A stretch of DNA of 64,000 nt, from positions 14,005 to 78,004 of the forward strand of contig CAOJJB010000001.1 in the NCBI GenBank assembly GCA_948436975.1, given 5' to 3'. Positions 33,617 to 37,941 of this stretch are shown piece after piece. Origin of the DNA: an uncultured Clostridium sp. Its GTDB lineage: Bacteria > Bacillota > Clostridia > TANB77 > CAG-508. A model generated the notes under the pieces. It worked only from the letters and a program-made list of their open reading frames with translations. It did no database searches and had not been told where the DNA came from. Every line of letters begins with the position of its first letter. Position 1 is the stretch's first letter. Both the position numbers and the translations under genes were made by a program.

Positions 33617-34330
33617 CTATATTTTTTGTGCTAACTCCATTTCTAAACTACTAATATTAAAATTGTTTCCATTATTTTTTATTAAATTTTGAATATTTTC
33701 AATTTTTCTAGATTTATCTATTACTGTTTCTAAAGGTACTATTTTATTTAAATTATTTTTTATGTTCTTATAGCATTTTTCCATTAATTCTAAATCTTTT
33801 TTATTATATGCTATATCCCAATTTTCACAATATTGCTCTAATTTCTCAACTGCTTTTAATTGTCTTGTTAATGTTTCTTCTATATTATTACTTATAGAAT
33901 TTATTATTGTATTTTTACCATTTTTTAACATATATGATGTGGATTTATTTATTAAATTCTTATTAGTTGCTAATTTTATACTATAATCTAACAATTCTGA
34001 AATATTATCTAATATACCTCCTTTTTTTACCGCAAGTTGTATTTGAGATATATTTTCAAAATTTCCTGTTATTATTCCCATGATACTTTTTCCTGTATTT
34101 ATACTAGAATTTATTACTTGCTTTATTCCTTCTGAAAAACCATTTTCTAATATTGCATTTTTTACATCTATTATTTGATCTTCAATAATATCTGGTAATA
34201 GAGCTTTTAATCCTATATCTATTGCTGAATTTATTGTTTTTCCTAAATTACTTTGCAAAAAATTTTGTTGCAATTCAATTAGTTTGTTATTTTTCATTTC
34301 TATATTATTTTCTAAAATCATATCATTCAT
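33617..34330 (-). CDS. Hypothetical all-helical soluble protein, last gene of the VirB4-like operon
   Basis: 237 aa, no TM segment or signal peptide, helical heptad-like composition; SD AAAGGA 8 nt upstream; 35-nt gap to the upstream gene. Confidence 0.55.
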   Translation of the reverse strand: MNDMILENNIEMKNNKLIELQQNFLQSNLGKTINSAIDIGLKALLPDIIEDQIIDVKNAILENGFSEGIKQVINSSINTGKSIMGIITGNFENISQIQLAVKKGGILDNISELLDYSIKLATNKNLINKSTSYMLKNGKNTIINSISNNIEETLTRQLKAVEKLEQYCENWDIAYNKKDLELMEKCYKNIKNNLNKIVPLETVIDKSRKIENIQNLIKNNGNNFNISSLEMELAQKI

Positions 34331-34365
34331 ATTTATTATCCTTTCACTTATTTTTTTATTTTAAT

Positions 34366-35610
34366 TTATAATTTTTCATATATTTTTTTATATTCGTCAT
34401 CAAAAATTAAATTATTCAAATTTTTATTAATAAACAAATTATATTTTTCATTATAATTAATATTTCCAAATAACTCATATTCAAAAAATATTTCTTTTAT
34501 AATATTTTTTGAAATATGATACTGATTTAATTTATTAAATAATAATTTAATTTTTTCATTTTCTATATTCCAATCTTTTTTATAAATTTCTAAAATTTTT
34601 TTCGCCTTTTTAATTTCTGATAAATTAGACTCTAATAAAAAAATTATTTTATTAGATAAATTTAAAATTCTTTCGATATAATTTAATTCAATATTAGAAG
34701 ATATATCTAATATTATAAAATCAAAGCTTTCTTTTATTTCACAAAAAAAATCGTTTAATTTATATAGTTCAACTTTATGTATTTTTGTTAATATTGAATC
34801 AAGTCCACACATTATGGAAAAATTATTACTAATATTATTTATTAAATAAACTAAATTATCTATATTAGTATTTTTATTACTATTTTTTAATCCTAATATG
34901 TATTTGATACTATTATTATTTATATCAAAATCTATTAATAAAACTCTTTTATTTTGTTGTTCTATATATTTAGATAAAATTAAAGAAACTATGCTTTTAC
35001 CAACTCCATAATTTCCTGATATAGTAATAATTTTATTATTAATAATATTGTTTTTATATTTTAAATCTAAATATTCCATATTTTTTTCAAATTTCTTTCC
35101 TACACTTTTATAATTTTCTTTAATTAATTTATTGTTTTTTTTTAATATTTTATTTTTATTTAAACAATCTTTTTTATTATAATTATTTAATTTATTATTT
35201 AAAATAAATTCTTTAAAATCCTTTATTTCATTAGTAATTTCGATTTTATTTTTTTCACTATTTATACAAAAATTATTTAAAAAAATATCATAATTATTTT
35301 GATTTAAATAATATATTTTATAAATATTTTTACTATTTAAAAAACTTTCTAAATATTCATTTTTTTCTTTTAAAAAAACTATTATTTCTATATTTTCTTT
35401 TTTATTTAAAATATTATTTATTAATATTTTAAAATCATATTCTATTGGTAAATTATTACTTAAAATTATTACATTAATATCTTCTTTTTCTTCTAAAATT
35501 TCTATTATTCCGTCTTGATATTGTATATCTTGTCCAATTACATCACAAATACCATATTGTCTAATTTTATTATTTAAGTATGGATCACCAATTGCTGTTA
35601 TTATTTTCAA
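34366..35610 (-). CDS. Atypical ParA/MinD/TadZ(CpaE)-like ATPase with N-terminal pseudo-receiver-like domain
   Basis: C-terminal P-loop ITISGNYGVGKSIVSL (Asn where MinD/ParA have the signature Lys) and VLLIDFDINNNS. The N-terminal ~100 aa has an alternating beta/alpha CheY-like pattern, but INVIILSNNLP replaces the phospho-acceptor Asp. TTG start with GGAGGG SD; TTGA overlap with the VirB4-like stop. Confidence 0.6.
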   Translation of the reverse strand: MKIITAIGDPYLNNKIRQYGICDVIGQDIQYQDGIIEILEEKEDINVIILSNNLPIEYDFKILINNILNKKENIEIIVFLKEKNEYLESFLNSKNIYKIYYLNQNNYDIFLNNFCINSEKNKIEITNEIKDFKEFILNNKLNNYNKKDCLNKNKILKKNNKLIKENYKSVGKKFEKNMEYLDLKYKNNIINNKIITISGNYGVGKSIVSLILSKYIEQQNKRVLLIDFDINNNSIKYILGLKNSNKNTNIDNLVYLINNISNNFSIMCGLDSILTKIHKVELYKLNDFFCEIKESFDFIILDISSNIELNYIERILNLSNKIIFLLESNLSEIKKAKKILEIYKKDWNIENEKIKLLFNKLNQYHISKNIIKEIFFEYELFGNINYNEKYNLFINKNLNNLIFDDEYKKIYEKL

Positions 35611-37316
35611 CTAATTAATCCCTCCTCATTTTTAGAACATTCTATTTTAGCTAATATATGATTATCACCTATAAACATTAATGTTTCTCCCCTTTTTAAT
35701 GATTTTATTTCAATTTTTTCTTTTTCAGAAATATTAGCATATTTTTCTAATACCAATATATTTTCTTCTTCTAAAGAAAAAAAAGATTTTATACTAGAAT
35801 TATTTAATATACTTTTTCCATATGTTCCATTATCTAAACTAAATAAATCAGATACATCTTGTGTAATAGCTACTGCACTTCCACCATACTTTCTTATAGT
35901 TTTAAATATTTTGTAAATAAAACTTGCTACGAATTTATTTGATGTAATTCCTATTAATCTCCATATTTCATCTAAATAAATTGCTTTATTTTTATTTCTA
36001 TCTTTTTTTATTTTATCCCAAAATAATTCTATAAAAATATACATACCATATTTTAAATTCTCTTCTCCTAACTCATATATATCTGCTACTATAAGTTTAT
36101 TGTTTAATTCAATATTTGTATAATTATTTAAAAATTTTAAAGATCCAAATATAAATGGATATAATTTTCTTTTAAAAAACATTGTTTTTTCATCTTTTCC
36201 AAAAATATTATATAAATCTTCTAATATAGGCATTTGTTTACTATTTTTAAATTCTTTATCTTCATTATATAATGAATTATCGTCAAAATTTATTCCTTTT
36301 TCTTTATAGGTTTCTATTAATTTTTCTTCTAATAAAGCTACTTTTTCCTCATCTAACTCACCAAAAACTAAACTGAAAAACATTCTTAATTTACTAATTT
36401 TTGTGGTTAAAAAACCTTTTTCTTCTTCAATACTATCTTCTCTAATATCTAATATATTTATATAAGAATTAGAGGTAGGTCCAAATTTTATACAAACTCC
36501 ATCTAAACTATCACATATTTTTGTATATTCTCTTTCTGGATCTATTATATATTGATCTAGTCCAAATAATCTATATCTTAATATTAATAATTTAGTATAA
36601 AAAGATTTTCCTGCCCCACTAGTACCAAATATACATATATTTGCATTTTTATATTTTTCTTTATTGAATCTATCCACTAAAATCATTGAATTATTATAAA
36701 TATTTGTTCCTATAAAAATACCTGTATCATCACATAAATTAGATGAAATAAATGGATATGTTGATATCAAACCACTTCCTAAAATATTTCTTTTTGTTAT
36801 ATTTTTTATTTCTTTACTATTATTCATTAAAGGTAAACATGCATTATATATTTGTTCTTGTCTAAAATTTCCTTTTCTTGTCATCATTCCTGAGGCTTGA
36901 AGTAATCCCTCTATTTTATTTAAATTTCTTTCCATTTCTTTTTCATTTTCAGAAATAATATTTATATATGTATATAAAAAATATAATTCTTCATTATTTA
37001 CTTGCATTTCTTTCCTTATATATTTGGCATCGTTGTATGTATATGCTGCTATATCTATATCCTCTCTATTTTCATTTCCAGATTTTAAATCTACTCCAAC
37101 ATTTCCAATATAATATGTTAAATCTTTTATAGTTTTATATGTATCTTGTTTTTCATAAAATACAGATATATTCATATTTACATTTGTATTTATTATATTT
37201 TTAAATATAATATCATTATATTCTCTATAATAATCAATAATTAAAATTCCACAATAATATTTACCATCTATTTCTAAATATTTAGGATTTTTATTATTTA
37301 TATAACTCGGTGCCAT
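35607..37316 (-). CDS. VirB4/TraE/PrgJ-like T4SS ATPase, C-terminal 569 aa (ATPase body), separated from its N-terminal domain by a frameshift
   Basis: YLEIDGKYYCGILIIDYYREY (VirB4 N-proximal motif), Walker A FGTSGAGKSFY, IIDPEREY, Walker B AIYLDEIWRL, AITQDVSDL. Confidence 0.72.
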   Translation of the reverse strand: MAPSYINNKNPKYLEIDGKYYCGILIIDYYREYNDIIFKNIINTNVNMNISVFYEKQDTYKTIKDLTYYIGNVGVDLKSGNENREDIDIAAYTYNDAKYIRKEMQVNNEELYFLYTYINIISENEKEMERNLNKIEGLLQASGMMTRKGNFRQEQIYNACLPLMNNSKEIKNITKRNILGSGLISTYPFISSNLCDDTGIFIGTNIYNNSMILVDRFNKEKYKNANICIFGTSGAGKSFYTKLLILRYRLFGLDQYIIDPEREYTKICDSLDGVCIKFGPTSNSYINILDIREDSIEEEKGFLTTKISKLRMFFSLVFGELDEEKVALLEEKLIETYKEKGINFDDNSLYNEDKEFKNSKQMPILEDLYNIFGKDEKTMFFKRKLYPFIFGSLKFLNNYTNIELNNKLIVADIYELGEENLKYGMYIFIELFWDKIKKDRNKNKAIYLDEIWRLIGITSNKFVASFIYKIFKTIRKYGGSAVAITQDVSDLFSLDNGTYGKSILNNSSIKSFFSLEEENILVLEKYANISEKEKIEIKSLKRGETLMFIGDNHILAKIECSKNEEGLIS

Positions 37317-37362
37317 TTTATCCTTAATATTTAATACTCCATCATAAAAATTGCTTATATTA

Positions 37363-37941
37363 TCACTCTCCTAACTCTTTTATTTTTTCTTTTAAATTGG
37401 GGTTAAAAAAAGAATTTAAAATCTTTTCTGTTTCTTTTTTTGAATTAACATCATAAACAATATTTCCACATCTTGATAATGATTCTTTTACTTTGAAAAA
37501 ACTTTCATTTAAAAAGTTAATTGCTATGTTTTCATTTACATAATTTTCAGATGCTTCTAAATTATATTTTATAATTATATAAAAATTTTTTGAGGATGAT
37601 TTATTCTCTTCATTTTTATCTTGAATAAACTCAATATATTTTTCGGTTATATCTTTTATTTTTTTATTTTCTTCGTTTTTGGAAATTTTTTTTAGATTTA
37701 CAAAATGTTTTGATAAATTTTCTTTTTTACTTTGAATAAGTATTTGAATATTAAAATCACAAGTTTTTAAAAATAATTTAAAAGAATTTAAAATAGCTTC
37801 TTTTTCTAAATCAGATTTTAAATAATAGTTAATTGGCAAGACTCTTATTATTTTTATATAAGATTGTTTACTTATTATAATACCATTTTCTAAAATATCA
37901 TCAAAAGGTATCCATGTTTGTGTTGTATTTTCTTTTTTTAT
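37363..37941 (-). CDS. N-terminal domain of the VirB4-like ATPase (separate ORF; probable ATA or lost-ATG start at 37941)
   Basis: The frame is open from 37941: (I)KKENTTQTWIPFDDILENGIIISKQSYIKIIRVLPINYYLKSDLEKEAILNSFKLFLKTCDFNIQILIQSKK. This matches remembered N-termini of Gram-positive VirB4 proteins (IP..I..DGII...INF.LKS..E). GGAG SD lies 9 nt upstream of ATA 37941. The first canonical start (TTG 37839) would truncate the conserved part. Confidence 0.55.
   Translation of the reverse strand: MKKENTTQTWIPFDDILENGIIISKQSYIKIIRVLPINYYLKSDLEKEAILNSFKLFLKTCDFNIQILIQSKKENLSKHFVNLKKISKNEENKKIKDITEKYIEFIQDKNEENKSSSKNFYIIIKYNLEASENYVNENIAINFLNESFFKVKESLSRCGNIVYDVNSKKETEKILNSFFNPNLKEKIKELGE

Follow-up and report, generated by a model that had tools for sequence, protein, structure and literature searches.

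Chromosomal type IV secretion systems (T4SSs) have been described in the Patescibacteria (Candidate Phyla Radiation, CPR), where they are related to the MPF-FATA class, mostly lack a relaxase and are often located next to dnaA and dnaN (Quinonero-Coronel et al. 2025, PMC12102498). They comprise TrsD, a separate protein with homology to the N-terminus of VirB4, together with PrgI/VirB3, VirB6 and VirB2-like pilins, including members of PF18895 (PMC12102498); Southlakia requires one such system to grow as an epibiont (Wang et al. 2023, as cited in PMC12102498). These are the closest described systems to the gene set analysed here, which surrounds gyrA in a 64,000-nucleotide stretch of the genome of an uncultured Clostridium sp. 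(contig CAOJJB010000001.1; hereafter the window). Four minus-strand open reading frames (ORFs) between gyrB and gyrA are assigned to a VirB4 N-terminal domain (N-domain), a VirB4 ATPase body, a 414-aa ParA/TadZ-like protein and a 237-aa all-helical protein. An earlier annotation of this DNA (the original prediction) had placed the same ORFs, quoted four VirB4 motifs and noted a TTGA overlap, all of which are present in the sequence. We consider it probable (roughly 0.6) that the four ORFs supply the cytoplasmic motor module of a T4SS of the monoderm (MPF-FATA) type that is chromosomal and vertically inherited, and that a clade of uncultured, low-GC gut Clostridia has co-opted and retains amid the replication genes near oriC.

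VirB4 in two pieces and the genes encoded with it

The best-matching family of the 569-aa protein is NCBIfam conju_CD1110 (3.9e-77, 260.2 bits); it also matches VirB4_plasma (Mbov_0397-type VirB4; 1.3e-66), TraC (2.9e-36) and Pfam P-loop_TraG (6.2e-20; 71.7 bits, cut-off 25.8). Its sole sequence match in the PDB is the VirB4 C-terminal domain 4AG5 (1.5e-42), and the motifs GTSGAGKS, DPEREY, YLDEIWRL and ITQDVSDL are all located within its translation. On these matches the protein is assigned to VirB4, as had been proposed, and not to the HerA/FtsK-type ATPases. A defence-system reading was rejected, PADLOC giving a weak mad8/DndH-type P-loop match for VirB4 (79 bits) and none for its partners; so was a phage reading, for which PHROGs gave only generic ParA and terminase P-loop matches.

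The 192-aa ORF upstream aligns with positions 1–170 of the CD1110 model (1e-8) and positions 99–290 of VirB4_plasma (2e-9), and the 569-aa body spans CD1110 positions 192–731; the two ORFs therefore tile one VirB4, and the identification of the smaller as its N-domain holds. In all of approximately 38 species the N-domain gene ends at a stop codon of its own and the body begins at a start codon of its own, with all three frame relations represented and gaps ranging from −20 to +530 nt, and the identical split is present in a complete chromosome assembled from HiFi reads. Because separate stop and start codons occur in every frame relation, the split is ancestral and not a sequencing error.

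The N-domain frame opens directly after a TAG stop and contains no ATG, GTG or TTG before codon 35. Its start codon is ATA (37941–37939, minus strand), nine bases after AAAGGAG; at this position ATA or ATT is found in 11 related species (ATT in three) and ATG in distant ones, 6–9 nt past GAAAGGAG in every species compared (L003–L019, L026 and L033), and several species have an in-frame stop directly upstream. The conservation of this position behind a Shine-Dalgarno sequence supports the start at 37941, and the boundary originally drawn there is accepted. We read the ATA codon as genuine non-canonical initiation, the conservation of which suggests deliberately weak or regulated translation; a weak start would in turn suggest that the cell holds the N-domain subunit at a low level.

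A promoter had been predicted upstream as TTGACT-15-TATAAT. The −35 element (38000–37995) is followed by TATAAT after 15 nt, or by TAATAT after 17 nt, the former lying 2 nt upstream of the latter. Promoter-like matches occur in the window DNA at chance density (53 found, compared with 54.3 ± 8.1 in shuffled sequence). TTGAC(T/A)-17-TA(A/T)TAT is retained at fixed spacing in eight species in which the rest of the spacer is unalignable, and it is this conservation, not the scan alone, that supports an operon promoter at the predicted site with a spacer of 17 nt in place of 15. Additionally, four relatives (L003, L005, L009 and L011) carry an extra GC-rich hairpin and T-run downstream of the promoter and ahead of the N-domain gene's Shine-Dalgarno sequence, for example GGGGCGCAAAAAAATTGCGCTCTTATTTTTTT. 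This element resembles an attenuator or terminator and is absent from the window, where a two-component system lies upstream; a leader hairpin in some relatives and a two-component system in others suggest that the operon is regulated.

The four ORFs had been treated as a lone ATPase operon. They are instead half of a T4SS gene set, the other half of which (24886–28123, plus strand) lies within 12 kb of them and flanks dnaD/dnaI. VirB4 is thus encoded with other T4SS parts, of which the VirB6 and VirB3 calls are weak. This second half comprises a VirD4-like coupling protein (a single ORF of 569–586 aa in relatives), a VirB2-like pilin, a 292-aa polytopic membrane protein and a 93-aa PrgI/VirB3-like membrane protein. 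All seven pilin orthologues examined match PF18895 T4SS_pilin (best 9e-5), and six of them match TrbC/VirB2. For the other two membrane proteins, matches come from the T4SS locus of Vescimonas fastidiosa, whose plasmid pMM35_02 carries the nearest plasmid-borne VirB4 (a 942-aa PrgI–VirB4 fusion, 34.6% identity). In a database of only 11 proteins, the 292-aa protein weakly matches a 236-aa membrane protein of that locus (3e-5), and the 93-aa protein matches residues 42–102 of the fusion (2.6e-6). Pfam PrgI is matched by two of seven orthologues of the 93-aa protein (6e-4) and TrbL/VirB6 by one of seven orthologues of the 292-aa protein, at 0.09; the latter protein is probably a VirB6 analogue. 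The membrane module (24886–30274 stretch, plus strand) is co-directional with, and lies 132 nt upstream of, dnaD/B-like and dnaI-like genes in an order conserved across the clade, so co-transcription is possible.

The distribution of the locus was determined by scanning one genome per GTDB species for ParA-like homologues, which yielded 41 loci, a few of them generic ParA matches. All other loci come from metagenome-assembled genomes of uncultured gut Clostridia, among them 'Clostridium sp. CAG:452', 'Clostridium sp. 26_22', UBA8271 and a 1.70-Mb HiFi chromosome. ParA-like homologues, even at 31–53% identity, always occupy the same slot. The order in 38 distinct loci is dnaA, dnaN, recF, gyrB, (two-component system), N-domain, VirB4, ParA-like, helical protein, gyrA, (CxxC), dnaI, dnaD, 93-aa, 292-aa and 109-aa proteins, VirD4. 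Scanning metagenomes with the helical protein brought in 80 more loci from the same clade, and the gyrB to gyrA module order recurs in approximately 70 distinct metagenome loci. dnaA identity across the clade is only 54–92%, yet locus position and order are fixed. VirB4 (61–89% identity across the clade) is conserved to the degree of housekeeping genes, and pairwise ratios of non-synonymous to synonymous substitution rates (dN/dS; Table 1) indicate purifying selection.

These data bear on a reading of the locus as the decaying remnant of an integrative and conjugative element (ICE) that landed between gyrB and gyrA, in which the split VirB4, the ATA start and a frameshift in VirD4 would all reflect pseudogenisation. 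VirB4 does occupy two ORFs, the first without a canonical start, VirD4 is frameshifted in the window, and no relaxase, hydrolase or VirB8-like gene was seen. However, the same split with intact ORFs recurs in the approximately 38 species and the HiFi chromosome, a strong Shine-Dalgarno sequence precedes the conserved ATA/ATT starts, and dN/dS is 0.09–0.29 for the VirB4 pieces and approximately 0.1 even for the C-terminal part of VirD4. Moreover, gene position and order are constant across the clade despite the divergence of dnaA, and no relaxase or integrase domain was recognised among the scanned ORFs of the window, nor was the variable position of a conjugative element found across the 38 species. 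The ancestral split, fixed order and low dN/dS are therefore incompatible with a recent pseudogene, with a sequencing artefact or with a decaying element; the ICE explanation is already largely refuted and we regard it as barely credible.

A constant helical protein and an optional ParA-like ATPase

The 237-aa protein is predicted to be soluble and all-helical, with 59 invariant columns, many of them glycines. As had been noted, it is without known relatives: none was found in Pfam, NCBIfam, PHROG, PADLOC or the PDB, a profile search of the PDB gave only a non-significant MIT-domain-like match (2v6y, E 0.08), and Foldseek against the PDB returned nothing below E 0.3, the AlphaFold2 (AF2) model being too poor for fold comparison. 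Per-member Pfam scans of the family produced scattered noise, which was discarded. The family is nonetheless large (1681 clusters at 90% identity; 478 representatives at 50%). There was no tblastn match among PLSDB plasmids, for this protein or for the ParA-like one; no DNA-binding domain was detected in either by Pfam or NCBIfam, and neither is annotated or named in the public sources searched.

VirB4 is encoded directly upstream of the helical protein in 35 of 40 informative metagenome loci, and gyrA directly downstream in 48 of 49. Four of the five loci without VirB4 upstream were identified (L076, L083, L118 and L122), of which only L118 was inspected. It was dismissed as an exception, since it is a chimeric contig in which high-GC foreign DNA (1–8900) is joined approximately 100 nt upstream of the helical-protein gene. 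By gene order, VirB4 has its constant partner in the helical protein.

The 414-aa protein is encoded directly after VirB4, its TTG start (35610–35608) overlapping the VirB4 TGA stop (35609–35607) as TTGA, with GAGGAGGG 8–9 nt upstream of the start. It consists of a pseudo-receiver (residues 1–116), a hypervariable low-complexity linker (approximately 117–190) and a MinD-like ATPase domain (191–414). The protein scores 42.9 bits against Pfam CbiA (cut-off 25.4); MinD is the top PDB sequence match of the ATPase domain, and the MinD equivalog score (43.9 bits) is far under the cut-off of 212.9. The AF2 model (predicted local distance difference test score, pLDDT, 75) has an alpha/beta receiver-like fold at residues 1–116 and a MinD fold at 193–414. 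Foldseek aligns the model with MinD, FleN and ParA (target-normalised template-modelling, TM, scores of 0.65–0.76). The only full-length structural match, covering both domains, is Eubacterium rectale TadZ (3FKQ), at a TM-score of 0.39–0.45 that is low because domain orientation and linker differ. These searches bear out the ParA/TadZ-like assignment.

In the alignment, the receiver-like domain lacks the acceptor aspartate, having serine or asparagine at the end of beta-3. The combination of an atypical receiver with a MinD-like ATPase is that of TadZ/CpaE, and the genetic setting is not: the window lacks tad genes, and every locus has VirB4 and gyrA as neighbours. The P-loop (GxxGxGKS) likewise accompanies a MinD/ParA fold without the signature lysine of the deviant Walker A motif (xKGGxxGK[ST]), a residue that serves catalysis in ParA/MinD dimers. 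The motif SG-N/A/D/V/T/E-x-x-x-GK[ST] is present in all 21 aligned members, G199, G204 and K205 alone being invariant within it; D302 and N359-K360-x-N362 are further invariant residues. The family comprises at least 800 clusters. A canonical Soj/Spo0J pair is encoded elsewhere in the window (55439–57081, followed by DUF4446), and the 414-aa protein is therefore not the chromosome partition ATPase.

Domain hidden Markov models were applied to 73 distinct loci. A full receiver–ATPase gene is present in 45; the two domains are separate ORFs in five, six have an in-frame fusion of the receiver-like domain with the helical protein and no ATPase, the receiver stands alone in two, and neither domain is found in 15. 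The ATPase domain or the whole ParA-like gene is thus gone in 23 of 73 lineages, in all of which the helical protein is kept and VirB4 is intact. The fusions were confirmed by BLAST and hhalign and occupy the same gyrB to gyrA slot; one fusion protein (P0246) was found on 10 contigs. VirB4, ParA-like and helical genes are separated by overlaps or short gaps across the clade, and where the ParA-like gene is missing VirB4 is followed directly by the helical-protein gene, 2 nt or 100 nt away. As an insert, the ParA-like gene is optional, and its repeated loss alongside retention of the helical protein defines an invariant core of N-domain, VirB4 and helical protein. The receiver~helical fusions lacking an ATPase provide a Rosetta-stone link, which argues that contact with the helical protein is part of how the receiver-like domain works.

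This domain-loss series also bears on the original suggestion of a stoichiometric pair, taken here as an obligate motor of two ATPases, VirB4 and the ParA-like protein. The TTGA/ATGA overlap, found in the window and in approximately 20 of 36 species, and the invariant P-loop residues speak for such a pair. Yet the ParA-like gene is missing from 15 of 73 lineages and reduced to the receiver in eight, with VirB4 intact throughout; the signature lysine is missing from all aligned ParA-like members; and the ParA-like gene evolves at a dN/dS of 0.4–0.75 (0.4–0.6 in both folded domains, approximately 1 in the linker) compared with 0.1 for VirB4. The ParA-like gene being optional and the helical protein constant, the stoichiometric pair is weakened and we now judge it quite improbable.

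Alternatively, the two accessory proteins may not be T4SS parts at all, and may instead form an origin-region, gyrase-related or cell-division positioning pair that shares the VirB4 operon. The helical gene lies immediately upstream of gyrA almost without exception, all the genes are proximal to oriC, the ATPase domain is closest to MinD in sequence, and neither protein occurs on any PLSDB T4SS plasmid or in the closest plasmid-borne VirB4 locus. Set against this are the canonical Soj–Spo0J pair already present, the start/stop overlap with VirB4 seen in roughly half the species, VirB4 running into the helical gene where the ParA-like gene is absent, and a promoter-like sequence of gyrA's own. 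Furthermore, no helical gene without VirB4 was found apart from that on the chimeric L118 (L076, L083 and L122 being uninspected). We consider a separate positioning pair improbable.

The origin-region setting

The window has a base composition of approximately 20–22% GC, and its GC skew changes sign at approximately 47–48 kb, adjoining dnaA, which identifies it as an origin region. On the minus strand the order is dnaA, dnaN, recF, a RemA-like gene, gyrB, an OmpR-type response regulator, a histidine kinase, the four ORFs and gyrA. The original placement of the operon between gyrB and gyrA is thus correct in position and incomplete in content, the response regulator and histidine kinase (38088–40923) also lying there; this pair adjoins the operon in approximately seven of 38 genome loci. 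The 109-nt spacer between the helical-protein gene and gyrA contains TTGCAT-17-TATAAT, a promoter-like sequence belonging to gyrA. A scan of the window found no terminator-like site between 33400 and 38300, and an Rfam gathering search of the window recovered five tRNAs and no other RNA element.

Table 1. Features of the window and conservation of the corresponding genes. Identity is the median relative to the window orthologue across clade loci; dN/dS is pairwise.
Feature	Position	Strand	Basis or remark	Median identity (%)	dN/dS
VirB4 N-terminal-domain protein (TrsD-like), 192 aa, ATA start	37363–37941	minus	CD1110 and VirB4_plasma matches	55	0.15–0.29
VirB4 ATPase body, 569 aa	35607–37316	minus	NCBIfam conju_CD1110, Pfam P-loop_TraG, PDB 4AG5	70	0.09–0.11
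TadZ-architecture (ParA-like) protein, 414 aa	34366–35610	minus	Pfam CbiA/ParA/AAA_31, Foldseek, AF2 model	40	0.43–0.75
Soluble all-helical protein, 237 aa	33617–34330	minus	family without annotation	49	0.13–0.39
Sigma-70-type promoter, TTGACT-17-TAATAT	37972–38000	minus	promoter scan and alignment of 8 species		
VirD4-like coupling protein	24886–26611	plus	Pfam TraG-D_C, TrwB_AAD_bind	68	0.09–0.14 (C-terminal part)
VirB2-like pilin, 109 aa	26608–26937	plus	signal peptide and two hydrophobic helices	67	0.01–0.25
Polytopic membrane protein, 292 aa, 5–6 transmembrane segments	26952–27830	plus	hydropathy		
PrgI/VirB3-like small membrane protein, 93 aa	27842–28123	plus	Vescimonas and Pfam PrgI matches		
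T4SS membrane proteins					0.12–0.17
OmpR-type response regulator	40225–40923	minus	Pfam match; optional neighbour, possible regulator		
Histidine kinase	38088–40223	minus	Pfam match; optional neighbour, possible regulator		
gyrA	31075–33507	minus			0.04–0.08
gyrB	41663–43591	minus		84	0.04–0.08
dnaN		minus		75	
dnaA		minus		65	
recF		minus		60	

Several further observations were made in this region. The 740-nt gap between gyrB and the response regulator (40924–41662) has no ORF of 60 aa or more and no Rfam match. A 2.8-kb segment at 16–19% GC (57625–60407) has no ORF of 80 aa or more; two tRNA genes (58744–58998) are the only Rfam matches there. A 567-aa acidic protein without a Pfam match is encoded next to pcrA (19879–21582, minus strand). 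SpoIIR is encoded at 11697–12311, and the organism therefore belongs to a sporulating lineage.

Two observations concern relatives. In L135, from sample ERZ14864794 (also the source of the window species), gyrA has 99% amino acid identity to that of the window (dS 0.08) and the helical protein 94% (dS 0.10); the flanks are diverged (VirB4 89%, dS 0.63; ParA-like 49%; dnaI 86%, dS 0.79). The mosaic points either to a recent recombination event spanning gyrA or to chimeric assembly of co-resident species. In L005, L011, L012 and L016, recF aligns as two pieces in different frames (residues 1–50 and 49–353), and it is called as two genes in L005 and L006; a conserved frameshift and a recurrent assembly error are both possible.

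A proposed co-opted secretion machine and its known relatives

In the mechanism that we propose for the co-opted T4SS, the two-piece VirB4 (TrsD-like N-domain and ATPase body) would dock on the PrgI/VirB3-like and VirB6-like membrane proteins and would energise assembly of the VirB2-like pilin, transport of a substrate through the channel, or both. The VirD4-like protein may serve as a dispensable substrate receptor, and the helical protein as a clade-specific, invariant VirB4 cofactor. The 414-aa protein is envisaged as an optional TadZ-like adaptor whose pseudo-receiver would bind the helical protein, and whose MinD-like domain would act as an ATP-dependent dimerisation switch setting where or when the VirB4 complex assembles or fires. 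This switch role is inferred by analogy with TadZ/CpaE and VirC1. Since no relaxase is encoded nearby, the machine is likely co-opted for a purpose that is not its own transfer, with contact through the pilus or contact-dependent transport the most likely.

Several points weigh against a co-opted, working T4SS. The support for it is genomic throughout. The VirB4 body scores below the conju_CD1110 equivalog cut-off (325 bits) and is therefore a divergent relative, not an equivalog; the VirB6-like and VirB3-like assignments rest on low scores and are weak. The VirD4-like gene of the window has a +1 frameshift (ACA CGG T CAG) at 25320–25341, just past the Walker A motif, giving ORFs of 151 and 443 aa, and the 443-aa product is also called in two other assemblies of the window species. 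No VirB8-like protein, peptidoglycan hydrolase or adhesin was seen adjoining the T4SS genes, so the machine may be incomplete or partly encoded elsewhere. The AF2 model of the helical protein, built from 26 homologues, reached a pLDDT of only 54, and as this protein is always next to gyrA, synteny alone cannot separate a link to VirB4 from a link to gyrA. Finally, the ParA-like protein is fast-evolving and repeatedly lost, and its role may therefore be marginal.

A narrower version of the same proposal would make the machine a conduit for DNA, either in natural transformation, as for Helicobacter pylori ComB, or in exporting or exchanging chromosomal DNA independently of a relaxase; the ParA-like protein would act as a DNA tether, in the manner of VirC1. 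A T4SS that lacks a relaxase and has a VirD4-like coupling protein would suit this, the gene set adjoins pcrA, dnaD/dnaI and the gyrase genes, and ParA-family proteins commonly bind DNA non-specifically. On the other hand, neither accessory protein has a detectable DNA-binding domain and VirD4 is frameshifted in the window species. The analogous Patescibacteria T4SS is, moreover, discussed in terms of lifestyle and host interaction, with a non-essential type IV coupling protein (PMC12102498). We consider a DNA conduit unlikely.

If the co-opted T4SS is real, chromosomal relaxase-less systems of this kind extend from the Patescibacteria to abundant, uncultured gut Firmicutes, and two unannotated families, the helical proteins (approximately 1,700 clusters at 90% identity) and the TadZ-like ATPases (at least 800), gain a concrete context. 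The lineages with a full ATPase, a receiver~helical fusion or neither would then represent a natural experiment on accessory control of VirB4. The host clade is abundant in animal guts. Should it correspond to TANB77, the machine and its very conserved secreted pilin would be candidate factors for interaction with a host or partner in bacteria that have reported clinical associations (immunotherapy response), and could hint at the reason for the resistance of these bacteria to cultivation. A bolder extension, which we regard as doubtful, is that a whole order-level clade of uncultured, reduced-genome gut Clostridia, possibly TANB77, depends on a domesticated T4SS embedded among replication genes for a contact-dependent lifestyle, as epibiotic Patescibacteria do, with the helical protein a new universal VirB4 cofactor and the TadZ-like protein a new T4SS positioning or gating switch acting through receiver–helical contact.

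Amongst known systems, TadZ/CpaE, as represented by E. rectale TadZ (3FKQ), has in common with the 414-aa protein an atypical receiver lacking the phospho-acceptor aspartate, a MinD/ParA-like ATPase and a gene beside that of a secretion ATPase. In the window, however, the partner is VirB4 and not TadA/CpaF, the linker is a 70-aa low-complexity segment, the sequence is closer to MinD, and the P-loop keeps GK[ST] without the signature lysine. In the gut order TANB77, a 2024 paper (PMC11680825) describes a Tad pilus with its own TadZ/CpaE at a different locus, and no T4SS. MinD itself is the best sequence and fold match of residues 191–414, and the window protein differs from it in lacking the signature lysine and minC/minE neighbours and in its extra receiver-like domain.

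VirC1 and VirC2 of the Agrobacterium Ti plasmid, a ParA/MinD-like ATPase and a small partner, coordinate substrate and T4SS spatially. VirC1 has no receiver domain, and VirC2 is a DNA-binding protein that acts with the relaxosome at overdrive. The window locus, in contrast, has neither a relaxase nor a detectable DNA-binding fold, and no homology beyond the P-loop fold is detectable.

The conjugative T4SSs of Firmicutes (CTn2/CD1110 family, pGO1 TrsD–TrsE, pCF10 PrgI–PrgJ) share the VirB4 family of the window, which differs in having no hydrolase after VirB4, no relaxase and a fixed chromosomal position. The Vescimonas fusion is the only PLSDB match of the window N-domain and is colinear with three window genes, residues 42–102 corresponding to the 93-aa protein, 127–282 to the N-domain ORF and 340–924 to the VirB4 body; one polypeptide there is thus three genes here, which lie to either side of gyrA. 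The Vescimonas locus has no ParA-like and no helical protein. A literature search on VirB4 with TadZ, ParA, MinD or gyrA/gyrB found no description of the VirB4, ParA/TadZ-like and helical arrangement, which the original prediction had not recognised from any described system. It had also been allowed that this trio might prove a common and already characterised module; the co-occurrence search found it common in one clade, and uncharacterised.

With the Patescibacteria systems the locus shares a VirB4 related to the MPF-FATA class, a TrsD-like protein (the split VirB4 resembling the known TrsD and VirB4 arrangement; PMC12102498), PrgI/VirB3-like and VirB6-like proteins and a PF18895 pilin, unusual in monoderms. 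It also shares the lack of a relaxase, a chromosomal location near dnaA/dnaN with vertical inheritance, and a VirD4 that is dispensable or encoded at a distance. The combination of TrsD-like protein, VirB4 and VirB2-like pilin in a chromosomal, relaxase-less and oriC-proximal setting is therefore that of the Patescibacteria type, a likeness of gene content and setting. The host, by contrast, belongs to the Clostridia, the genes are interleaved with gyrB/gyrA and dnaD/dnaI, and there is one pilin gene in place of an array. The helical and TadZ-like proteins are extra, no ParA/MinD-like or helical partner being mentioned in PMC12102498. These two accessory proteins, together with their natural domain-loss series, are what is new relative to the known co-opted chromosomal T4SSs.

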